A stretch of DNA of 26,417 bases from a virus (Duplodnaviria > Heunggongvirae > Uroviricota > Caudoviricetes): IMG/VR virus record IMGVR_UViG_2703718784_000007; one strand, given 5' to 3'. Below the pieces are notes generated by a model. The model searched no databases. It was not told the origin of the DNA and saw only the letters and a program-made list of their open reading frames with translations. Numbering within the stretch: the first letter of the stretch is position 1; every line of letters begins with the position of its first letter. Of the stretch, positions 2,198 to 17,503 are shown in pieces. The position numbers and the translations under genes are program-made.

Positions 2198-4186
2198 ATG
2201 GCATTTAAACACTACGATGTGGTCAGGGCGGCATCGCCGTCAGACCTTGCTGAACGACTGACACAAAAACTGAAGGAGGGGTGGCAGCCATTTGGCAGCC
2301 CTGTCGCCATCACGCCTTATACCCTGATGCAGGCTATTGCGGCGGAAGGTGATGTCACCACGCCGGTGCTGGTTAAACCATCGGGTGACGGGGAGACGGC
2401 TATCAGCAAGACCGGTGAGCCTGAATATTATTATGTTGTCGCGCTGGCGGGTCAGTCAAATGGTATGTCTTTTGGAGAGGGAGTACCGTTACCTGATTCT
2501 TATGATCGCCCTGATCCGAGAATTAAGCAGCTTGCCCGTCGACGTACCGTTACGCCGCGAGGCGTTCCCTGCACCTATAACGATGTTATTCCGGCAGATC
2601 ATTGTCTTCATGATGTGATGGATATGAGTGAAAAAAATCACCCCCGGGCAGACCTCAATAAAGGTCAGTATGGTTGTGTGGGTCAGGGACTGCATATTGC
2701 CAAAAAACTGTTACCGTTTATACCGGCGAATGCGGGCATTCTTCTGGTTCCATGCTGTCGTGGAGGCTCGGGAGTGACTACAGGTAATGAGGGAACATTT
2801 AACGCCTCTTCCGGGGCAAGCCCTGATTCTGCATTGTGGGGAGCTGATAAGCCGCTGTACCAGGATCTGTTAAGTCGCACGAAAGTCGCGCTGGCTAAAA
2901 ATCCCGGAAATATCCTGCTGGCGGTAATCTGGATGCAGGGGGAGAGTGATCTGGCTTCAGGAAGCCAGAGTCATAATGCTCTTTTTACTGGCATGGTACA
3001 GAAATTCCGTGCTGACATCGCTGATATGTCAGGGCAGTGCGTGGGGGGCTCGGCACTGAGCGTTCCGTGGGTTTGTGGCGATACGACGCATTACTGGAAA
3101 GAAAAATATGCTGCGTCTTATGAAACTGTATACGGTGGATATAAAAATAAGGCAGCGCAGAATATTCACTTTGTCCCTTTCATGGTTGATGGAAGCGGGG
3201 TAAATGTGCAGACCAATAATCCGGCAGAAGATCCTGATATTGAAGGTATTGGCTACTCCGGTTCGAAGTGGCGAGACAGTTCTGTCAGCTGGACGTCAGG
3301 TGACAGGGCAAGCCATTTCGGTTCATGGGCGCGGCGTGGAATTATTTCAGATCGTCTTGCAACCGCAATTCTGACCCACGCAGGCAAATACCCGGCGTTT
3401 ATCACCGGGCGGTCAGAAACGGTAGTTGCAGGAGATGAACGGGAAAACGTTACATCCGGAAATTTCCCGTCACCTGTGGAGGATGCTGCGTTATCACAGG
3501 ATGCACCTCAGAGAAGAACGGTTGTTGAGTATAATTCAGCTGTTGAGAAAGACAGCCTCGGTGGTAACTGGGCAGCCCAGCACTGGAATGCCCGGGACGG
3601 TGTCGCCGAGTTTGTTAATGATGAAAGCAGACAGGTGCTGAAGATTAAGCAGCATGAGGGCAAACAGGGACCGTGGATGCTGTCAGCAGGAGTATCAGCT
3701 GAAGATGCCCGTGCTCTGTATGAAAATGGCGGTGAAATAAAACTTGAATTCAGGTTGCCGGATGGTACCCAGGTTGCAGATGACAAATACCTCTTTGGTG
3801 TTTACCTGCCAGTTTCCGGGTGGACTCAGGAAGGCAACGGCAGCAATATGATGGCCTCCTTTTTCACTCAGACAAAAGCCAGTAACCTGGATGTCATGTA
3901 TCACGGTAAAACACAGCCTAATACAAAAATTGAGTCATTCGGTGCGGTTAATAACAACTGGCACACGCTTGTCTTTAAATATAAAGGAGGCGGCAATCAC
4001 CAGGTTATTCCGGTACTTGACGGAGAAGAGAAAACAGGTTTTGCACTGAAAGAAGGTCCGGTCACTTCTGCCTTTACGGTGGATAACATCACAGTGACAG
4101 GTATCAGCGCAAATCAGGGAAAATCTTATCCTGTCATGTTCCGCAGTATCATGGTAAGCATTAACCAGGCAACCTCTTCATCATAA
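2198..4186 (+). CDS. nanS: Prophage sialate O-acetylesterase (NanS-p family; SGNH/SASA esterase domain plus C-terminal domains)
   Basis: 662-aa ORF with GGGAGGA RBS; GQSNG-type catalytic serine motif (VALAGQSNGMSFGEG); size and position immediately upstream of the lysis genes as in Stx-type lambdoid prophages. Confidence 0.85.
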   Translation: MAFKHYDVVRAASPSDLAERLTQKLKEGWQPFGSPVAITPYTLMQAIAAEGDVTTPVLVKPSGDGETAISKTGEPEYYYVVALAGQSNGMSFGEGVPLPDSYDRPDPRIKQLARRRTVTPRGVPCTYNDVIPADHCLHDVMDMSEKNHPRADLNKGQYGCVGQGLHIAKKLLPFIPANAGILLVPCCRGGSGVTTGNEGTFNASSGASPDSALWGADKPLYQDLLSRTKVALAKNPGNILLAVIWMQGESDLASGSQSHNALFTGMVQKFRADIADMSGQCVGGSALSVPWVCGDTTHYWKEKYAASYETVYGGYKNKAAQNIHFVPFMVDGSGVNVQTNNPAEDPDIEGIGYSGSKWRDSSVSWTSGDRASHFGSWARRGIISDRLATAILTHAGKYPAFITGRSETVVAGDERENVTSGNFPSPVEDAALSQDAPQRRTVVEYNSAVEKDSLGGNWAAQHWNARDGVAEFVNDESRQVLKIKQHEGKQGPWMLSAGVSAEDARALYENGGEIKLEFRLPDGTQVADDKYLFGVYLPVSGWTQEGNGSNMMASFFTQTKASNLDVMYHGKTQPNTKIESFGAVNNNWHTLVFKYKGGGNHQVIPVLDGEEKTGFALKEGPVTSAFTVDNITVTGISANQGKSYPVMFRSIMVSINQATSSS

Positions 4187-6988: not shown

Positions 6989-7002
6989 TATCTGTGCCGG
7001 GA

Positions 7003-7335
7003 ATGAAAATGAAAAGAAATCTTCCGTTAATTATTTTGTTGTCTTCTCTGGTTATGGGCTGTACGCAACATAAAACAGATATGCCCCGACAGTTGGTTAA
7101 GGCATTACCACAATATCCGGCCTATGCAGCGGCAAATTATATAAAGGGACGGGTTGATGTGAAGTTTGATATTGGTGCTGATGGTACTGTCACCCGAATT
7201 GAGTTTATCCGTTCAGAGCCGCACCATCTGTTTGATGAGCAGGTTGTAAAAGCGATGGCAAAATGGCGATTTGAGAAGGACAGGCCGCGTAAAGGCGTGA
7301 AGAAAACGTTTATCTTTAGTCCTTCTGCACCCTGA
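7003..7335 (+). CDS. Lipoprotein with TonB C-terminal-domain-like fold; candidate moron
   Basis: Signal peptide with lipobox LVMGC (MKMKRNLPLIILLSSLVMGC); remainder resembles the TonB C-terminal domain as recalled (PQYPA.A......G.V.VKFD...DG.V.....I.S.P...F...V..AM..WR.E). Start chosen at ATG 7003; GTG 6994 or ATG 7009 also possible. Confidence 0.8.
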   Translation: MKMKRNLPLIILLSSLVMGCTQHKTDMPRQLVKALPQYPAYAAANYIKGRVDVKFDIGADGTVTRIEFIRSEPHHLFDEQVVKAMAKWRFEKDRPRKGVKKTFIFSPSAP

Positions 7336-7708: not shown

Positions 7709-8074
7709 ATGGCTCAGCTTCGTACACTCCAGAGCAGAATCAAAACACTGAATACCCGACGGGTGAATATTCTGAAGGGTGAACAGCGTCGTGTCAGTGG
7801 CAGTGCACGTGTTTCCCTCAAGCGTCATATCTGGCTCAGGGACGCCGGGCAGTGCTGTCTCTGTGGTCGTGTGGTTGACCTCTGTGACAGTGAACTCGAT
7901 CACCGAATTGCACTTCAGTTCGGTGGTGGTAATGAGGAGACGAATCTCTGGACGCTCTGTACCGAATGCCATCGACAAAAGTCTGTTCGTGAAGCGGCGA
8001 GTGGTATGCCGGACCCGACACTGCCGGAGGTGTCCGGAGGTAGTGGCAGAGCGGACGACATCATCGGACTGTAA
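7709..8074 (+). CDS. HNH endonuclease (terminase-associated, HK97 gp74-like)
   Basis: Cys-pair zinc finger and HNH motif (CCLCG...DHRIALQFGG.N...NLWTLCTECHRQK); located immediately upstream of the cos region and terminase genes. Confidence 0.85.
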   Translation: MAQLRTLQSRIKTLNTRRVNILKGEQRRVSGSARVSLKRHIWLRDAGQCCLCGRVVDLCDSELDHRIALQFGGGNEETNLWTLCTECHRQKSVREAASGMPDPTLPEVSGGSGRADDIIGL

Positions 8075-8363: not shown

Positions 8364-8927
8364 GTGCTGACAACGCAAAAACGAAAATTTGCGCTGGCGC
8401 TCATGTCCGGGAAAAACAAAACAGCGTCAGCCATTGCCGCCGGTTATTCGGCGAAGACAGCCAGGGTTAAAGGCTCGCAGCTGGCAAAAGATCCGGAGGT
8501 GCTTGCGTTTATAGCCCGTAAACAGTGCGAGACGGTGGAGGTGGATGAGGTTCCTGTTTACCGGCAGAAAAAATCAGAGCAGGAGGATAAACCCCGTCGC
8601 CGTGAGGCGGCTGCAATACCACAGCCGGACGAAACAAATCCGGAGATGCCACCGCCCGTGGTGATATCTCCTGGTATTGAGTATATGGAGGACGGTCTTC
8701 CCGATCCTGTGAAAGCGATGGGGCGTCTTCTGGTGGAGAACATTAATACCGACCCCAGGCTGGCGCTGGATGCGGCTTATAAGCTGGCGCAGTTCACGCA
8801 CCACAAAAAAGGGGATGCCGGTAAAAAATCGGCAAAAGGTGACGCGGCGAAAAAAGCGGCTAACCGTTTTGCGGTGCCACCACCACCCCGCCTGGTGGTG
8901 AATAATGATAATGAGGGCAACGGATGA
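8364..8927 (+). CDS. Terminase small subunit
   Basis: GTG start with GGAGGAGG RBS; N-terminal HTH-type motif (ASAIAAGYSAKTARVKGSQL); stop overlaps the TerL start. Confidence 0.8.
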   Translation: MLTTQKRKFALALMSGKNKTASAIAAGYSAKTARVKGSQLAKDPEVLAFIARKQCETVEVDEVPVYRQKKSEQEDKPRRREAAAIPQPDETNPEMPPPVVISPGIEYMEDGLPDPVKAMGRLLVENINTDPRLALDAAYKLAQFTHHKKGDAGKKSAKGDAAKKAANRFAVPPPPRLVVNNDNEGNG

Positions 8928-10585
8928 TACCAGTGTGGAGCACGGCCTGCCCGGACTGGGCAGAGCGTCTGAAAAAGGGGCTGTCGATTATTCCGTCTCC
9001 GATTTACCCGGAGCAGGCCGCACATGCCCTGGCGATTTTTAAACAACTGCGGATTGTGGATGCACCGGGCAGCCCGACGTTCGGGGAGTCCTGTGCAGCG
9101 TGGGTGTTTGACCTGGTGGCGGCCCTGTTTGGCTCCTACGATGCGCAGACCGGTGTACGCCATATAAAGGAAGTGTTCATTCTGATACCGAAAAAAAACA
9201 GCAAGTCCACGCTGGCCGCGGGGATCATGATGACGGCGCTGTTACTGAACTGGCGGCAGGCGGCGGGCTACACCATTCTGGCCCCGACCGTGGAGGTGGC
9301 GGCTAACGCCTTCAACCCTGCCAGGGATATGGTTCGACGGGACGATGATCTGGATGACCTCTGTCAGGTGCAGACACATATCCGGACCATCACCCATCGG
9401 GTGACGGACACCACCCTTAAGGTGGTGGCTGCCGATCCGAATACGGTGTCCGGTATCAAGTCCGTGGGGACGCTGATTGATGAACTGTGGTTATTTGGCA
9501 AGCAGTACAAAGCGGAGGACATGTTACGTGAAGCCATAGGCGGCCTTGCCTCCCGCCCGGAAGGGTTTGTGGTGTATACGACCACCCAGTCGAATGAGCC
9601 GCCAGCCGGAGTGTTCAGACAGAAACTGCAGTACGCCCGGGATGTCCGTGACGGCAAAATTCATGATCCGCACTTTCTGCCGGTGATATTTGAACACCCT
9701 CCTGAAATGGTGGAAAGCGGGGCTCACCTGCTGATGGAAAACCTCGCCATGGTCAATCCGAATCTCGGTTATTCGGTGGATGAGGCTTTTCTGTACCGGG
9801 AGTACCGTAAAGCCCGGGAGGCTGGTGAGGAAGCATTTCGTGGCTTCATGTCAAAACACGCCAATGTGGAAATCGGTCTTGCCCTGCGTTCTGACCGCTG
9901 GGCGGGCGCGGATTTCTGGGAGCAGCAGGGCAGGCGCGTCAGCCTGGACGATATCCTGCAGCGCGCTGATGTGGTGACGGTGGGGATTGACGGCGGGGGC
10001 CTGGATGATCTGCTGGGAATGTACGTGATTGGCCGTGACAGGGAAACCCGCGAATGGCTGGGCTGGGGCCATGCCTGGGCGCATGAAACCGCGGTGCTCA
10101 GACGGAAGAGTGAGGCATCCCGGTTTCAGGATTTTGTGGCCTGTGGAGACATGACGATTGTCCGTCGGGTCGGGGATGACACGGCGGAAGTGGCGGAGTA
10201 TGTGCGTCGTATCCATGAGGCTGAGTTACTGGATCATATCGGTATTGACCCGTCAGGTGTGGGGCAGATTCTGGATTCACTGGCGGAAGCCGGGATCCCC
10301 GACGGAATTGTTGTGGGGATAAGCCAGGGCTGGAAGCTGGGCGGGGCCATCAAAACCACCGAGCGCAAACTGGCTGAGGGAGTGCTGGTGCATGGTGGTC
10401 AGCCACTGATGGCCTGGTGCGTTGGCAATGCCCGGGTGGAGACTAAAGGTAACGCCATCCTTATTACCAAACAGGCCAGCGGACGGGGGAAAATTGACCC
10501 GCTGATGGCGCTGTTCAATGCGGTATCCCTGATGTCCCTGAATCCGGGGCCGAAAAAGAAAGAATATGCGGTTTTTTTCATATAA
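8924..10585 (+). CDS. Terminase large subunit (HK97-like)
   Basis: 553 aa; ATGA overlap with TerS; position and size; ATPase and nuclease regions not verified by search. Confidence 0.85.
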   Translation: MIPVWSTACPDWAERLKKGLSIIPSPIYPEQAAHALAIFKQLRIVDAPGSPTFGESCAAWVFDLVAALFGSYDAQTGVRHIKEVFILIPKKNSKSTLAAGIMMTALLLNWRQAAGYTILAPTVEVAANAFNPARDMVRRDDDLDDLCQVQTHIRTITHRVTDTTLKVVAADPNTVSGIKSVGTLIDELWLFGKQYKAEDMLREAIGGLASRPEGFVVYTTTQSNEPPAGVFRQKLQYARDVRDGKIHDPHFLPVIFEHPPEMVESGAHLLMENLAMVNPNLGYSVDEAFLYREYRKAREAGEEAFRGFMSKHANVEIGLALRSDRWAGADFWEQQGRRVSLDDILQRADVVTVGIDGGGLDDLLGMYVIGRDRETREWLGWGHAWAHETAVLRRKSEASRFQDFVACGDMTIVRRVGDDTAEVAEYVRRIHEAELLDHIGIDPSGVGQILDSLAEAGIPDGIVVGISQGWKLGGAIKTTERKLAEGVLVHGGQPLMAWCVGNARVETKGNAILITKQASGRGKIDPLMALFNAVSLMSLNPGPKKKEYAVFFI

Positions 10586-10611
10586 CCCTGTTCACCCTGT
10601 AACCATCATGG

Positions 10612-10631
10612 ACCGCTGCGGCGGTTTTTTT
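10612..10631 (+). terminator. Weak terminator-like hairpin (accgc-tgcg-gcggt followed by T7) between TerL and the capsid fusion gene
   Basis: 5-bp GC stem followed by a T-run. Confidence 0.35.
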
Positions 10632-10648
10632 ATTTTCAGGAGGCTGAT

Positions 10649-12586
10649 GTGACTCTTAAACGGGCCTGCTCCCTGCTGACGGTGAAATCCTTCAGTGAGG
10701 ATGAGCGGGTGATCACCGGGATTGCGTCAACGCCTTCTCCGGATCGGGATGGTGACATCCTGGAGCCGGAGGGCGCGGAGTTTGGCAGTGCGATCCCGTT
10801 TCTCTGGCAGCATGACCATTCCCGCCCGGTGGGGCAGTGTACGGTGCGCCGGGTCAGCGAAGGGCTGGAAATCACGGCAACACTGGCGAAGCCCGTGCCG
10901 GATATGCCATCGCAACTGGCTGCCCGGCTGGATGAGGCCTGGGCGGCCATTAAGACCGGGCTGGTCAGGGGGCTGTCCGTGGGCTTCCGTCCTCATGAAT
11001 ACACCTTTCTGGACGGAGGCGGACTGCATTTTCTGCGCTGGGAACTGATGGAGGTGTCTGCCGTCACCGTGCCCGCGAATGCGGAATGCACCATCCGGAC
11101 CATTAAATCTTACGACCGCCAGTTTTCTGCCGCGTCCGGCAACCGGAAACCGGTGGTGAAAATCGCATCTTCTGCCGGCGCTGCGGCACAGTCAACAACC
11201 GTTTTTCATAAGGAAAAGACCATAATGAATATTGGCGAACAGATTAAAAGTTTTGAAAACAAGCGTGCAGCGCTGGCAGCCTCCCTTGAGGAGGTCATGA
11301 CCAAAGCCGCAGAGGAAGGGCGCACGCTGGGTGTGGAGGAGGAAGAGCATTACGACAACACCGCAGCGGAAATCCGTCAGGTGGATGCGCACCTGAAGCG
11401 CCTGCGTGAACTGGAAGCCGGTAAGGCCGCCACGGCGCAGCCGGTGAAACAGGCCGGTAACGGGAATGTGGCCGCGGTGGCTTCTGCGCCGGTGATCCGT
11501 GTGGAGCAGAAACTGGATAAGGGGATTGGTTTCGCACGTTTTGCCAAATCACTGGCTGCGGCTAAAGGTGTCCGCTCTGAAGCCCTGGAAGTGGCCCGTC
11601 GTCAGTATCCGGATGACAGTCGTCTGCATCATGTCCTGAAATCGGCAGTGGGCGCGGGGACCACCACGGATCCGCAGTGGGCAGGCAGCCTGTCTGAATA
11701 TCAGGAATACGCACAGGACTTTATTGATTACCTGCGTCCTCAGACCATTATCGGGCGATTTGGTCAGGGCGGGATCCCTGCACTTCGTCAGGTGCCGTTC
11801 AATATCCGTGTGCACGCCCAGGTGTCCGGCGGTGCTGCCGGCTGGGTGGGTGAGGGTAAGGCAAAACCCCTGACGAAGTTTGATTTTGAATCCATCACCT
11901 TCAGTCATGCGAAGGTGTCGGCCATTGCGGTACTGACGGAAGAATTGATCTGTTTTTCCAGTCCGGCTGCTGATGCACTGGTCCGTAATGCGCTGGCGGA
12001 AGCGGTGGTGGCGCGTCTGGATACAGACTTTGTGGACCCGAAAAAAGCGGCGGTGGCAGATGTCTCCCCGGCGTCCATCACCCATGATGTGAAGGGCACG
12101 GCATCAAGCGGTAACCCGGATGCGGATGCAGAGGCTGCGTTTGGACAGTTTGTGGCAGCAAACCTGCAGCCCACCGGTGCGGTCTGGCTGATGTCCAGCA
12201 CCAATGCCCTGGCACTGTCCATGCGTAAAAATGCGCTGGGTCAGAAAGAATACCCGGACATGACCCTGCTGGGTGGCTCCTTCCAGGGGCTGCCGGTGAT
12301 TGTCTCCCAGTACGTGGGTGACCAGCTGGTGCTGGTGAATGCCCCGGATATTTATCTGGCGGATGACGGCGGCGTGGCAGTGGATATGTCCCGCGAGGCA
12401 TCACTGGAAATGCAGTCTGAGCCGACCGGCGACAGTACCACGCCGTCGCCGGTGGAGCTGGTTTCCATGTTCCAGACAGGCAGCGTGGCCATCCGTGCGG
12501 AGCGCTGGATCAACTGGCGTCGTCGCCGTACCGCGGCGGTGGCGGTGATCACCGGAGTGAACTACGGCAGTGCGTCCGGCGGCTGA
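10649..12586 (+). CDS. Prohead protease - scaffold (delta-like) - major capsid protein fusion, HK97 family
   Basis: GTG start with AGGAGG RBS; N-terminal ~150 aa with HK97 prohead protease hallmarks (HDHSRPVGQ, GLSVGF, EVSAVTVPAN); central coiled-coil segment; C-terminal ~400 aa MCP-like; internal in-frame ATG at 11225 preceded by AAGGAAAAG. Confidence 0.85.
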   Translation: MTLKRACSLLTVKSFSEDERVITGIASTPSPDRDGDILEPEGAEFGSAIPFLWQHDHSRPVGQCTVRRVSEGLEITATLAKPVPDMPSQLAARLDEAWAAIKTGLVRGLSVGFRPHEYTFLDGGGLHFLRWELMEVSAVTVPANAECTIRTIKSYDRQFSAASGNRKPVVKIASSAGAAAQSTTVFHKEKTIMNIGEQIKSFENKRAALAASLEEVMTKAAEEGRTLGVEEEEHYDNTAAEIRQVDAHLKRLRELEAGKAATAQPVKQAGNGNVAAVASAPVIRVEQKLDKGIGFARFAKSLAAAKGVRSEALEVARRQYPDDSRLHHVLKSAVGAGTTTDPQWAGSLSEYQEYAQDFIDYLRPQTIIGRFGQGGIPALRQVPFNIRVHAQVSGGAAGWVGEGKAKPLTKFDFESITFSHAKVSAIAVLTEELICFSSPAADALVRNALAEAVVARLDTDFVDPKKAAVADVSPASITHDVKGTASSGNPDADAEAAFGQFVAANLQPTGAVWLMSSTNALALSMRKNALGQKEYPDMTLLGGSFQGLPVIVSQYVGDQLVLVNAPDIYLADDGGVAVDMSREASLEMQSEPTGDSTTPSPVELVSMFQTGSVAIRAERWINWRRRRTAAVAVITGVNYGSASGG

Positions 12587-12600
12587 GTCTGATAAGGAGG

Positions 12601-12622
12601 ACGGGAGGCGTGCGCCTCCCGT
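12601..12622 (+). other. Strong GC-rich stem-loop just after the capsid gene stop (acgggagg-cgtgcg-cctcccgt), no U-tract
   Basis: 8-bp perfect stem with 6-nt loop, 15 nt after the stop; candidate mRNA stabiliser or weak terminator. Confidence 0.4.
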
Positions 12623-12797
12623 AACAGGTTATGGCAAAGATCCGATATCTGCAGGGCACGCATGATGCCCGGGCCGGGGATATCCGTGATGTGGCACAGC
12701 CGTGTGCGGAGGTGCTGGTTCGCCTGGGAAAGGCGGAGTACATCACGGTGCGACGTCCGGCAGGTCAGAAAAAGAAACGTGATGCGGAGCATGGCGA

Positions 12798-14162
12798 ATG
12801 TGGAACCTTTTACGGCGAACCCGAAAAAACCAGAAATCAGGACGTGACGTAAGAGAGGCGGGCTGGACCAGCCTGTTTCAGGCGGTGGCTGAGCCCTTTT
12901 CCGGTGCCTGGCAGCAGGGCGTGAAAGCCGATCCTGAAGCCGTCCTCTCCTTTCATGCGGTGTTTGCATGTATTTCGCTGATATCCCAGGATATCGCCAA
13001 AATGCGGCTGCGTCTTATGCAGACGGATGCGCAGGGGATACGCAGGGAAACGCGCCGGGGGGATATTGCCCGCCTCTGTCGTCGTCCCAACGCCCAGCAG
13101 AACCGCATCCAGTTTTTTGAACTGTGGCTGAACGCCAAACTGCGTCACGGCAATACGGTGGTGCTGAAAATCCGTAATGCCCGGGGGCAGATCAAAGAAC
13201 TGCGTATTCTGGACTGGAACCGGGTTGAACCTCTGGTGGCGGATGACGGCGAGGTGTTCTACCGCATCACGCCGGACCGGAACTGCGGGATCACTGAGGC
13301 GGTGACGGTGCCTGCCCGGGAAGTGATCCACGACCGGTTTAACTGTTTTTTTCATCCGCTTATAGGATTGCCGCCGGTGTATGCCGCCGGGCTGGCGGCC
13401 ACGCAGGGGCATCATATTCAGGAAAATTCGACGTCTTTTTTCAGAAATGGCGGCAGGCCGTCCGGGGTGATTGAGATCCCCGGCAGTATTACGGAAGAAA
13501 ATGCGAAAAAACTGAAGAGCAACTGGGACAGCGGGTATACAGGCGAAAATGCGGGGAAAACGGCCATTCTGAGCAACGGGGCAAAATACAACCCCACGAC
13601 GTTTTCACCGGTGGATGCGCAGACGGTGGAACAACTGAAGATGACCGCTGAAATTGTCTGTTCGGTGTTCCGTGTCCCGGCCTACAAGATTGGCGTGGGA
13701 CAACCGCCTTCCAGTGACAACGTGGAGGCGCTGGAGCAGCAGTATTATTCCCAGTGCCTGCAGACACTGATTGAGTCCATTGAGCTGTTACTGGATGAGG
13801 CGCTGGAAACGGGGGAAAACGAGAGTACGGAATTTGATGTCACCACGCTGCTGAGAATGGACAGTGAGCGGCGCATGAAAACGCTGGGGGATGCGGTGAA
13901 AAATACGCTTCTCACGCCCAATGAAGCCCGAAAACGGGAGAACCTGCCGCCCCTGGCAGGAGGCGATGCACTGTATCTTCAGCAGCAGAACTACAGTCTG
14001 GAAGCGTTGTCCCGCCGTGATGCCCGTGAGGATCCGTTCGCGTCGTCCGGTAAAACAGCTTCCGTGCCTCAGGCGGTCGCTGCATCTGACGGTAATAAGG
14101 CAATCACTGAAACAGAGCATGACGCGGTGAAGGCGATGTTCAGGGGGATTCTGAAAAAATGA
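12798..14162 (+). CDS. Portal protein (HK97 family)
   Basis: 454 aa; first ATG after an in-frame stop at 12780, GGAG RBS; motifs typical of HK97-type portals (AVFACISLISQDIAKM, FFRNGGRPSGV, NAGKTAILSNG). Confidence 0.85.
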   Translation: MWNLLRRTRKNQKSGRDVREAGWTSLFQAVAEPFSGAWQQGVKADPEAVLSFHAVFACISLISQDIAKMRLRLMQTDAQGIRRETRRGDIARLCRRPNAQQNRIQFFELWLNAKLRHGNTVVLKIRNARGQIKELRILDWNRVEPLVADDGEVFYRITPDRNCGITEAVTVPAREVIHDRFNCFFHPLIGLPPVYAAGLAATQGHHIQENSTSFFRNGGRPSGVIEIPGSITEENAKKLKSNWDSGYTGENAGKTAILSNGAKYNPTTFSPVDAQTVEQLKMTAEIVCSVFRVPAYKIGVGQPPSSDNVEALEQQYYSQCLQTLIESIELLLDEALETGENESTEFDVTTLLRMDSERRMKTLGDAVKNTLLTPNEARKRENLPPLAGGDALYLQQQNYSLEALSRRDAREDPFASSGKTASVPQAVAASDGNKAITETEHDAVKAMFRGILKK

Positions 14163-15253
14163 ATGAACGTGAACTGTCCATTATCCGTGCGCTGGGTGAA
14201 GAATTTTCCGCGGTGCTGGCGGATTTACAGCGCACATTTGAGGAGAAAATAGCCGCGCAGGCACAAACGTTTGAAGAAAAACTGGCTTCCCTGTCTGTGG
14301 TATTACAGAAGTGCGTGACGGGCGATGATGTGCGTCCGATGCTTGAACAGATAGTGAAGGAGGCGGTAAGCCATATTCCTGTTCCGCGTGACGGTCGTGA
14401 CTACGATCCGGAAGTACTGCAGAAGGCGGTGAATGATGCGGTCGCAAATATTCCGCAGCCGGCGGACGGTAAAAGTCTCACCCCGGATGATNNNNNNNNN
14501 NNNNNNNNNNNNNNNNNNNNNNNNNNGCGTCCGATGCTTGAACAGATGGTGAAAGAGGCGCTAAGCCATATCCCTGTTCCGCGTGACGGTCGTGACTACG
14601 ATCCGGAAGTACTGCAGAAGGCGGTGAATGATGCGGTCGCAAATATTCCGCAGCCGGCAGACGGTAAAAGTCTCACCCCGGATGATNNGCGTCCGATGCT
14701 TGAACAGATGGTGAAGGAGGCGGTAAGCCATATTCCTGTTCCGCGTGATGGTCGTGACTATGATCCCGATGTTCTGCAGAAGGCTGTTCTGGATGCGGTG
14801 AGTGCCCTGCCGGCTCCGCAGGACGGGCGTGATGCCACGGCACTGGAAATACTCCCCGCCATTGACGATCAAAAATCCTTTCCCCGGGGCACGTATGCCA
14901 CACACCTGGGCGGACTCTGGCGGGCGTATGAAAAAACGCACGGGATGCGGGGATGGGAATGTCTGGTTGACGGGGTGGCGGATATTGACGTCAGCATGAC
15001 GGGTGAACGGTTGTTCTCTGTGGTGGTCCGGCAGAGCAGTGGCCAGCGTACGGAAAAAACATTTTCCCTGCCGGTGATGCTCTACCGCGGTGTGTTCAGA
15101 GCCGGTGAAACCTACCACCCCGGCGATACGGTGACGTGGGGCGGCTCGCTGTGGCACAGCAACAGTATGACCGGTGATAAACCCGGAGAAGCTCATTCAT
15201 CAGGCTGGACCCTGGCTGCAAAACGTGGGCGGGATGCTGGAGGCGGAAAATGA
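14159..15253 (+). CDS. Hypothetical phage structural protein with N-terminal coiled coil and tandem ~54-aa repeats; sequence interrupted by assembly gaps
   Basis: ATGA overlap with portal stop; three visible copies of RPMLEQ.VKEA.SHIPVPRDGRDYDPEVLQKAV.DAV...P.P.DG...; N-runs at 14492-14526 and 14687-14688 lie inside the repeats, so length and frame are provisional. Confidence 0.6.
   Translation: MNERELSIIRALGEEFSAVLADLQRTFEEKIAAQAQTFEEKLASLSVVLQKCVTGDDVRPMLEQIVKEAVSHIPVPRDGRDYDPEVLQKAVNDAVANIPQPADGKSLTPDDXXXXXXXXXXXXRPMLEQMVKEALSHIPVPRDGRDYDPEVLQKAVNDAVANIPQPADGKSLTPDDXRPMLEQMVKEAVSHIPVPRDGRDYDPDVLQKAVLDAVSALPAPQDGRDATALEILPAIDDQKSFPRGTYATHLGGLWRAYEKTHGMRGWECLVDGVADIDVSMTGERLFSVVVRQSSGQRTEKTFSLPVMLYRGVFRAGETYHPGDTVTWGGSLWHSNSMTGDKPGEAHSSGWTLAAKRGRDAGGGK
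14332..14830 (+). repeat. Tandem 162-bp (54-codon) coding repeats, at least 3 copies
   Basis: Copies begin at 14332, 14527 and 14689 (gcgtccgatgcttgaacag...); period 162 bp between copies 2 and 3. Confidence 0.75.
14492..14526. other. Assembly gap (35 N) inside the tandem repeat; second 2-N gap at 14687-14688
   Basis: N characters in the sequence. Confidence 1.
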
Positions 15254-15576
15254 CGGCATTACTGACACTGGAAGAGATCAAGGCACATCTGCGTGTCGAC
15301 CATGACGCGGATGATGACATGCTGATGGAGAAGGTTCGTCAGGCTACCGCCGTGCTGCTGGCCTACATTCAGGGCAGCCGGGATAAGGTGATTCGTGAGG
15401 ACGGTGAACTGATCCCGGGCGAGGCATTAACCCGGATGAAGGGGGCTGCCATGCGACTGACCGGGATGCTGTACCGGAATCCGGATCTTGCGGAGCGGGA
15501 AGAACTGCTTCAGGGGGAGCTGCCGTTTTCTGTTTCCGTGCTGATTTACGATTTGCGTTGTCCGACGGTGTTATGA
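15250..15576 (+). CDS. Head-tail connector protein (phage gp6-like)
   Basis: ATGA overlap with upstream stop; N-terminus LTLEEIKAHLRVDHDADDDML typical of gp6-like connectors. Confidence 0.7.
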   Translation: MTALLTLEEIKAHLRVDHDADDDMLMEKVRQATAVLLAYIQGSRDKVIREDGELIPGEALTRMKGAAMRLTGMLYRNPDLAEREELLQGELPFSVSVLIYDLRCPTVL

Positions 15577-16786: not shown

Positions 16787-17503
16787 ATGTCTGCTTTGTA
16801 TGAACGCTCACAGCTGACGCAGGTGATGATTTCATCTGCCCCGGCGACTGCTGAAACTATGGATAAGGCGGAATATCTGCGCCTGGACTGCACCATCAAG
16901 GAAGTCCAGTTCACCGCCGGTCAGAAACAGGATATTGATGTGACCACGCTCTGCTCCACAGAGCAGGAGAACATCAACGGTCTGGGGGCGTCGTCCGAGA
17001 TTTCCATGTCGGGTAATTTTTATCTGAATCAGGCCCAGAACGCCCTGCGTGATGCTTATGACAATGACGCGTTGTATGCGTTTAAGGTGCAGTTTCCGTC
17101 CGGTAAGGGCTTTAAATTCCTGGCGGAAGTGCGTCAGCACACCTGGTCATCCGGTACCAACGGCGTGGTGGCTGCAACGTTCTCACTGCGTCTGAAAGGC
17201 AAACCGGTGTCCTTTGTGGTACCGCTGGCGTTTGTGAAAAATCTGGAAAAGACACTTACCGTGAATACCGGTGCGCTGCTGACAATGTCAGTCAGTGCCA
17301 ACGGGGGAATGCCGCCGTATAAATACGCCTGGAAGAAGGATGGTCAGCCGGTTGACGGGCAGACGACAGACACCTTCAGTAAGCCCGGTGCGCAGTCCGC
17401 TGATGCGGGGAAATATACCTGCGTGGTGACCGATTCGGCAGAGAAAGCACAGAGTGTGACGTCTGTTGAATGCACCGTGACAGTGAGCGCAGCCGCCGGA
17501 TAA
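16787..17503 (+). CDS. V: Major tail protein with C-terminal Ig-like domain
   Basis: AGGAGG RBS; position before G/GT; C-terminal ~80 aa Ig-like (PPYKYAWKKDGQPV...GKYTCVVTD). Confidence 0.8.
   Translation: MSALYERSQLTQVMISSAPATAETMDKAEYLRLDCTIKEVQFTAGQKQDIDVTTLCSTEQENINGLGASSEISMSGNFYLNQAQNALRDAYDNDALYAFKVQFPSGKGFKFLAEVRQHTWSSGTNGVVAATFSLRLKGKPVSFVVPLAFVKNLEKTLTVNTGALLTMSVSANGGMPPYKYAWKKDGQPVDGQTTDTFSKPGAQSADAGKYTCVVTDSAEKAQSVTSVECTVTVSAAAG

Follow-up and report, generated by a model that had tools for sequence, protein, structure and literature searches.

The locus described here raises the question whether a single phage gene that carries a prohead protease, a scaffold-like segment and a major capsid protein (MCP) is translated into one product or into two. 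The gene lies in a 26,417-nucleotide (nt) stretch of DNA of a virus of the Caudoviricetes (IMG/VR record IMGVR_UViG_2703718784_000007), which is referred to below as the window and to which coordinates refer unless another locus is named. Comparison of its sequence with those of its relatives indicates that the gene is probably nested, giving rise to a protease-carrying chain of 69 kDa as well as a scaffold-capsid chain of 48 kDa, the latter starting at an in-frame ATG at position 11225. The gene and its two candidate starts are as follows.

10649..12586, + strand: full-length fusion open reading frame (ORF; protease-linker-delta/scaffold-MCP), 645 amino acids (aa), 68.9 kDa, matching PHROG 617
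10638..10651, + strand: 5' translation start of the full-length product, AGGAGG, a 5-nt gap and GTG (from sequence)
11209..11227, + strand: candidate internal translation initiation region, UAAGGA, 10 nt and ATG (codon 193) (from sequence and family conservation)
11225..12586, + strand: nested ORF for delta/scaffold-MCP without the protease, predicted product of 453 aa and 48.1 kDa

The sequence-only reading held that one 645-codon ORF joins an HK97-type prohead protease, a delta-like helical segment and an HK97-fold capsid domain, and this architecture was borne out by Pfam, NCBIfam, AlphaFold and Foldseek. The protein matches PHROG 617, a family of fused 'major head protein' sequences, with an E-value of 5e-260 (residues 1-639 on profile positions 7-626 of 626). 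NCBIfam NF045541 (scaf_prot_MCP2, 'prohead protease/major capsid protein fusion protein') reaches 52.5 bits against a cut-off of 525, over residues 48-287 only, and appears to represent the same architecture in a different sequence family. The start codon is GTG in 78 E. coli-clade loci and ATG, at the same codon, in other enterics, which validates the start at 10649; this ATG is found in Salmonella, Enterobacter, Klebsiella and other relatives (position 4001 in loci L002-L018). The domains of the product are arranged as follows.

10697..11110, + strand: HK97-type (S78) prohead protease domain, residues ~17-154 (Pfam, gp4 alignment, model)
10811-10813, + strand: putative catalytic H55, invariant in 122 diverse homologues
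10976-10978, + strand: putative catalytic S110, invariant in the same 122 homologues and aligned to gp4 S114
11111..11224, + strand: disordered, fast-evolving linker, residues 155-192 (model, alignment)
11225..11668, + strand: delta-like scaffolding region, residues 193 to ~340 (model; C-terminal boundary inferred)
11669..12583, + strand: HK97-fold capsid shell domain, residues ~341-645, about 32 kDa (PF05065, TIGR01554, Foldseek, profile matches to capsid proteins in the PDB)

The protease assignment held in a formal profile search, in which Pfam Peptidase_S78 (PF04586) matches residues 48-153 with 34.1 bits, above the cut-off of 21; the stricter NCBIfam protease equivalog TIGR01543 stays below its cut-off (46.6 versus 59 bits). 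BLASTP aligns the domain with HK97 gp4 at 29% identity (E 1e-8). In that alignment S110 pairs with gp4 S114 in a GxSVGF motif and H55 lies one column off gp4 H65, S114 and H65 being the catalytic residues of gp4. Moreover, only five columns are invariant among the 122 homologues, and H55 and S110 occupy two of them. An AlphaFold model built from the alignment of these sequences has a mean predicted local distance difference test (pLDDT) score of 85.5, and shows the protease domain (17-154) as folded and beta-rich, with pLDDT 91-97; an earlier structure model from 16 close homologues had been discarded (pLDDT 43). Foldseek with the whole model returned capsid matches only, with no fold-search match for the protease domain, and no solved relative of the protease turned up when PDB sequences were searched with a profile; identification of the protease rests on hidden Markov models and the gp4 alignment, not on fold search.

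Residues 155-189 of the linker have pLDDT values below 50 and are indel-rich and poorly conserved, and in the model the disorder stops and the first helix starts at the internal Met (M193). The gp4 alignment stops at gp4 residue 162 of 225. Free HK97 gp4 carries a C-terminal tail of about 60 aa, whereas the fusion protein is without this tail and has the linker and the covalent join instead. The tail of gp4 is reportedly a capsid-targeting signal.

Downstream of M193, the model predicts a helical hairpin (195-222 and 229-262), a flexible stretch (263-292) and short helices (293-331), and positions 199-262 of the family profile match 9gyi_B, a major head protein chain of 385 aa, over its residues 4-67 (E 3e-7). 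The capsid domain is recognized by Pfam Phage_capsid (PF05065; residues 386-635, 50.7 bits, cut-off 24.2) and by NCBIfam TIGR01554 (major_cap_HK97; residues 204-584, 73.8 bits, cut-off 27.5), and Foldseek matches the shell domain to the capsid proteins of Bxb1, R4C, D3 and HK97 (E 2e-14 to 1e-9, target-normalised TM score 0.5-0.73). BLASTP of the 453-aa part against HK97 gp5 gave no significant match (E 0.15), and the relation to gp5 is visible only by profiles and fold. In gp5, the scaffold is likewise an N-terminal domain of the MCP (PMC10275583). According to the model, the boundary between delta region and shell would lie near residue 340, which makes the delta region approximately 148 aa long in the fusion protein, versus 102 aa in HK97.

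The fused form of the gene is widespread. Over its whole length it displays 99.1% nucleotide identity to ORF56 of the Stx1 phage BP-4795, annotated as 'putative major head protein/prohead protease'; phages 2851, YYZ-2008, 1717, Stx2a_WGPS and others share the gene, and all these records annotate a single coding sequence with no internal start. Phage records with the gene number 93, most of them of Stx1a, Stx2a and Stx2c converting phages. Among 5426 complete E. coli genomes, 1255 (23%) have it, with up to seven copies each; PGAP labels it as a single "phage major capsid protein". The fused frame is identical in 1252 complete E. coli genomes and in 92 phage records. A HMMER scan of 1.84 billion cluster representatives (clusters at 50% identity) detected 1159 clusters at E <1e-30. 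When the best 150 of these 1159 were classed, about 140 proved to be full-length fused proteins of 590-740 aa, and a few stand-alone capsid proteins of 456-478 aa began at query residues 193-196. Among named phages, the fusion occurs for instance in Pseudomonas PAJU2, Salmonella FSL SP-016 and Rhizobium RHph_X2_26.

Comparison of fused and split genes across relatives favored the fused form, which was present in 176 of 188 fetched loci, ranging from Enterobacterales to Reyranella, Burkholderiales and diverse IMG/VR contigs; a few are truly split. Split relatives, with protease and then MCP in the same order, occur in Snodgrassella (L025/L028; protease 234 aa, MCP 439 aa), Acidovorax (L024) and Burkholderia phage vB_FUBS1. 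Three IMG/VR relatives (L130, L135, L188) are split by one in-frame stop at most 9 codons from the MCP start. In L135 (3765-3770) TAA abuts the MCP ATG and in L188 (around 4040) TAG stands two codons before ATG; the corresponding positions in L130 are 4106-4133. Such single-stop splits point to recent fused-to-split switching, as far as can be judged from sequence; speculatively, low-level readthrough could also yield a minority fusion from them.

It is the conservation of the internal start across this family that carries the two-product proposal. The MCP start codon of the split relatives (L025/L028, L024 and vB_FUBS1) aligns exactly with M193. AGGA or GAGG is located 6-10 nt from an invariant ATG in 33 of 35 distinct enteric junction sequences, and the Shine-Dalgarno (SD) core is kept there even though substitutions and indels abound in the enteric linker ahead of M193. 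GC-rich lineages carry perfect AAGGAGG, CAGGAGG or GAGGAGG motifs 6-9 nt before ATG, with GTG where Met has been lost. Family-wide tests were performed on 46 fused lineages that are less than 70% identical to each other. An SD core (AGGA, GGAG or GAGG) occurs 4-11 nt upstream of the junction start in 39 lineages, where 3.2 would be expected from the in-frame background (binomial P about 2e-38, with lineages treated as independent), and the junction codon is ATG in 39 lineages and GTG in 7. The pairing energy of the junction ranks in the top 5% of the in-frame positions of the gene in 25 of the 46, and the internal SD exceeds the 5' SD in mean strength (-8.6 versus -6.9 kcal/mol), being the stronger of the two in 30 of 44 lineages (Wilcoxon P 0.0016). 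Besides, in 26 lineages the junction falls into the least structured 5% of windows, the GC content of third codon positions (GC3) is lowered after the internal start in 40 (P 2e-9), and a strong SD, an unstructured junction or both are encountered in 43 of the 46. The lineages with weak SDs, which include the window, have the most unstructured junctions.

Synonymous codon choice at the junction was evaluated as well. In all 32 enteric sequences, the Gly codon found among the six codons before the ATG is GGA, compared with 8% of other Gly codons. At junctions of the type x-E-[G/A], Glu is encoded by GAG in 28 of 29 cases (background 58%), and the preceding codon ends in G, again in 28 of 29 (background 35%), with its residue varying between K, Q, E, P, L and T; this codon test was preferred, since selecting GGAGG-containing junctions would force the G. 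Judged by these patterns, the constraint at the junction appears to act on nucleotides rather than on the peptide. The earlier suggestion that scaffold-MCP is also made without the protease thereby gains comparative support: the alignment of M193, the kept SD core with ATG or GTG, and the conservation at synonymous sites all suggest initiation at this codon.

In the window itself, the ATG at 11225-11227 is in frame with UAAGGA at 11209-11214 and AAGGAAAAG at 11210-11218 upstream of it, and it is preceded by cAUAAGGAaaagaccaua; as the sequence-only reading had pointed out, an in-frame ATG with an SD-like motif marks the very boundary between protease and scaffold. GC content falls to its lowest in the gene at this site (11204-11263, 28% versus 60%), the trough being centred on the ATG. 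An 80-nt window centred on 11225 has a minimum free energy (MFE) of -6.9 kcal/mol, compared with a median of -26.6, and ranks third of 645 among the least structured; structure at the junction was judged by MFE ranks, as an unpaired-probability measure looked unreliable. GC3 is 0.33 after M193 and 0.42 before it, versus 0.67 elsewhere in the gene.

In the mechanism that is proposed on these grounds, ribosomes that initiate at GTG 10649 would produce the 68.9 kDa chain (residues 1-645), consisting of the S78 protease, a flexible linker, the delta/scaffold region and the capsid protein, and ribosomes that initiate at ATG 11225 would produce the 48.1 kDa delta/scaffold-capsid chain (193-645) alone. 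Long and short chains would assemble together by way of their capsid and scaffold parts, which are identical, with the N-terminal parts of both presumably pointing inward, as in HK97. The protease would be packaged by its covalent tether and not by a C-terminal targeting tail as is the free gp4 of HK97, which is consistent with the absence of the ~60-residue gp4 tail from the fusion protein. After assembly, the putative Ser/His protease (S110, H55) would remove linker and delta region from all subunits, leaving a processed shell protein of about 32 kDa. The protease dose per procapsid would be set by the relative strength of the two initiation sites, and the GTG start at 10649 may down-tune the protease-bearing chain in the E. 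coli clade, whose internal SD is the weakest.

For the protease-MCP fusion family in general (more than 1000 clusters at 50% identity), it seems fairly likely that the genes are dual-product genes, in which the internal ribosome-binding site (RBS) makes the bulk scaffold-capsid subunit and the full-length protein is a minority, Gag-Pol-like protease carrier, with the dose tuned by RBS strength and with fused/split switching via a single in-frame junction stop (as in L130, L135 and L188) being tolerated.

The alternative that survives best, although we regard it as unlikely, is a single-product polyprotein: only the 645-aa chain would be made, every subunit would carry a protease (about 415 per T=7 shell), and the internal ATG with its SD-like motif would be an inert relic of the fusion. 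Several observations speak for this alternative and weigh against internal initiation. All records annotate the uninterrupted ORF as one coding sequence, and the capsid of Gifsy-2 is said to assemble from a protease-scaffold-MCP polyprotein, so that one product could suffice. The capsid polyprotein of PAJU2 was proposed to be fused and autocatalytically cleaved (Uchiyama 2009, as cited in PMC8306868). In the window, the 5' RBS (AGGAGG, paired with GTG) is strong, and the internal SD (AAGGA, -6.2 kcal/mol) is weaker than it. By pairing energy this internal SD reaches only the 24th percentile among in-frame positions and is equalled or bettered at 13 of 47 other in-frame ATG/GTG codons, and its GGA stands 10 nt from the ATG, close to the upper limit of customary spacings. 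The low GC content of the linker derives partly from its Lys/Asn/Thr-rich composition, a concern that the GC3 test lessens and does not abolish, and the lineages are phylogenetically related, so that the P values overstate independence and are upper bounds on significance. The searchable literature yielded no direct evidence for initiation at 11225 or at the equivalent site of any related phage.

By pairing energy, the SD of the window is unremarkable when taken by itself, and the case here rests on family conservation together with the AU-rich, unstructured context. That conservation is what argues against an inert relic. A neutral relic should decay at 35-45% identity, yet the SD core, the start codon, the synonymous choices and the unstructured context have been kept while the linker diverged freely; moreover, the internal SD is, as noted, the stronger of the two on average.

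A second alternative is that the SD-like motif serves as a translational pause or folding signal, allowing the protease to fold before the scaffold emerges, and is not an initiation site. The position of the motif at a domain boundary, within a disordered linker, would suit such a function. However, the motif always lies 4-11 nt before an ATG or GTG that is homologous to the start of stand-alone MCP, and is followed by AU-rich, low-GC3 codons typical of gene 5' ends, none of which is needed for pausing. SD-induced pausing is itself disputed. A pause signal is considered very improbable.

The shorter product could also originate from a separate transcript, as does HSV-1 UL26.5, which arises from a second promoter inside UL26. 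The AT-rich junction is compatible with an internal promoter, but no sigma-70-like promoter was found within 10400-12900, and the conserved element is an SD and not a -10/-35 pair; late genes of lambdoid phages are, furthermore, read from one antiterminated late transcript. With no promoter-like site inside the gene, the shorter product would be attributed to internal translation initiation rather than to a second transcript, and an internal promoter seems even less probable than pausing.

Finally, the window contains assembly gaps elsewhere (14492-14526, 14687-14688) and a few relatives are truly split, but the idea that adjacent protease and MCP genes were joined by a sequencing or assembly error can practically be dismissed, as the counts of fused-frame genomes, phage records and loci given above, in which linker length differences are in frame, refute a frameshift artefact.

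If the internal start is used, as we consider probable, current annotation overlooks the main structural product of the gene, and it is translation that sets the number of proteases per procapsid, which would otherwise equal the number of subunits. The nested protease/assembly-protein strategy would then extend to the shell protein as the shared part, and the gene offers a simple system to study how capsids control protease encapsidation. To a specialist, this reading will be plausible rather than startling, and it does not amount to a new kind of biology. A full-text literature search gave no report of internal initiation in a protease-MCP fusion, though an earlier description may exist; as far as determinable, the internal start is apparently new for the fusion family. 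The fusion and the unusual gene order are real and already on record, in BP-4795, PAJU2 and PHROG 617.

The genes surrounding the fusion gene identify the window as a lambdoid prophage of the Stx-phage type (BP-4795-like), and its immediate neighbourhood is as follows.

7709-8074: HNH endonuclease gene, just upstream of TerS
8364-8927: TerS, the gene upstream of TerL
8924..10585, + strand: terminase large subunit (TerL), immediately upstream of the fusion gene (Pfam TerL_ATPase, TerL_nuclease)
10610..10635, + strand: terminator-like hairpin (GGACCGC-TGCG-GCGGTTT) plus T-run, between TerL and the fusion gene (consensus scan)
12631-12852: 73-aa ORF between capsid and portal genes, PHROG 829, function unknown
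12798..14162, + strand: portal gene, downstream of the capsid gene (Pfam Phage_portal E 8e-82; TIGR01537 352 bits)

Placement of the fusion gene before the portal gene, which the sequence-only reading had described, is evident from the order TerS-TerL-fusion-73-aa ORF-portal. TerL is found upstream and the portal gene downstream in 118 of 144 unique loci, and in none is the portal gene upstream; the remaining loci are truncated contigs or have terminases too diverged for detection. BP-4795 has an identical neighbourhood, with an HNH-like ORF, TerS, TerL, the fusion gene, a small ORF and the portal gene. The HNH-before-TerS arrangement is typical of HK97-like cos-packaging modules. The 73-aa ORF is conserved and overlaps the annotated portal start, and PAJU2 has two small ORFs at this place. 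The hairpin at 10610-10635 overlaps the A/U-rich leader of the 5' RBS of the fusion gene, and almost all fetched loci, distant ones included, retain a 'gcgggtttttt' element ahead of their homologue of this gene. A putative terminator is annotated at the equivalent place, before the protease gene gp4, in the HK97 record. The hairpin might act within the late operon as an attenuator, or else as an element for mRNA stability or processing.

The other genes in the window include a nanS-like esterase, lysozyme and Rz, and, after the portal gene, head-tail connector, head completion and tail genes. An ORF following the portal gene (14159-15253) contains tandem repeats of ~195 nt (RPMLEQMVKEA...SLTPDD) that are broken by N runs; its counterpart in BP-4795 is ORF59 (1386 nt), and PHROGs call its family 'portal protein', the true portal being 12798-14162. 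The N runs at 14492-14526 and 14687-14688 are assembly gaps, and their interruption of the repeats indicates that the repeat array was collapsed or masked in assembly; a tandem-repeat finder applied to 14000-15400 found nothing, owing to these N runs. Two small ORFs may represent moron-like accessory genes, one with a TolA C-terminal domain (301-729, Pfam E 3e-22), before the esterase gene, and one with a TonB C-terminal domain (6994-7335, Pfam E 6e-15), between Rz and the HNH/terminase genes. The tail tube protein (16787-17503) carries a C-terminal Ig-like domain (Pfam Ig_3, Ig_2 and I-set beside Phage_tail_2).

Among known systems, HK97 shares the protease family and the capsid fold of the fusion protein, but has gp4 and gp5 as two separate genes in the order portal-protease-MCP, in contrast to the TerL-fusion-portal order of the fusion family. 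A further known relative is ORF003 of Pseudomonas phage PAJU2 (UniProt P85500, 'capsid polyprotein', noted as 'prohead protease fused capsid protein'), which is 48% identical over its full length and has the same order of TerL, fusion gene, small ORFs and portal gene. At the homologous junction, PAJU2 has a perfect internal CAGGAGGG followed by 7 nt and ATG, with GGAGAG as its 5' site; its internal SD is much stronger than that of the window, and host and GC content differ. A discussion of internal initiation in PAJU2 was not found in the literature search. Another enteric lambdoid prophage, Gifsy-2 of Salmonella, reportedly has one gene for an N-terminal protease, a central putative scaffold and a C-terminal MCP. 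Its protease is said to be ClpP-like and not S78, and its MCP to be of a different lineage, with a lambda-like decoration protein. Actinobacteriophage annotation likewise has an established label, 'major capsid and protease fusion protein', used for example in clusters EE and AU (PMC9671004, PMC9753647); judged by annotation, these fusions embody the same architectural idea in phages of unrelated hosts.

Nested protease/scaffold genes, the nearest functional analogues of the proposed arrangement and an established strategy, are represented by C/Nu3 of lambda, UL26/UL26.5 of HSV-1 and gp17/gp17.5 of the archaeal virus HFTV1 (bioRxiv 10.64898/2026.09.13.751334). In these systems the long product has the protease, the short assembly protein derives from an in-frame internal start and shares its C-terminus, the two co-assemble, and their ratio is set at initiation. 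An in-frame internal start with an RBS after the protease domain, as in lambda C/Nu3, is present at 11225, whereas the predicted short product is not a separate scaffold, so that the working would be similar and the arrangement different. Lambda, HSV-1 and HFTV1 encode their capsid protein in another gene, and what their two nested products have in common is a separate scaffold, whereas in the fusion gene scaffold plus capsid protein would be shared and the protease would ride on a shell subunit; the protease, moreover, is of the S78 type, compared with the S49 type of lambda C. Formally, the nested fusion would resemble Gag/Gag-Pol, with the enzyme at the N-terminus.

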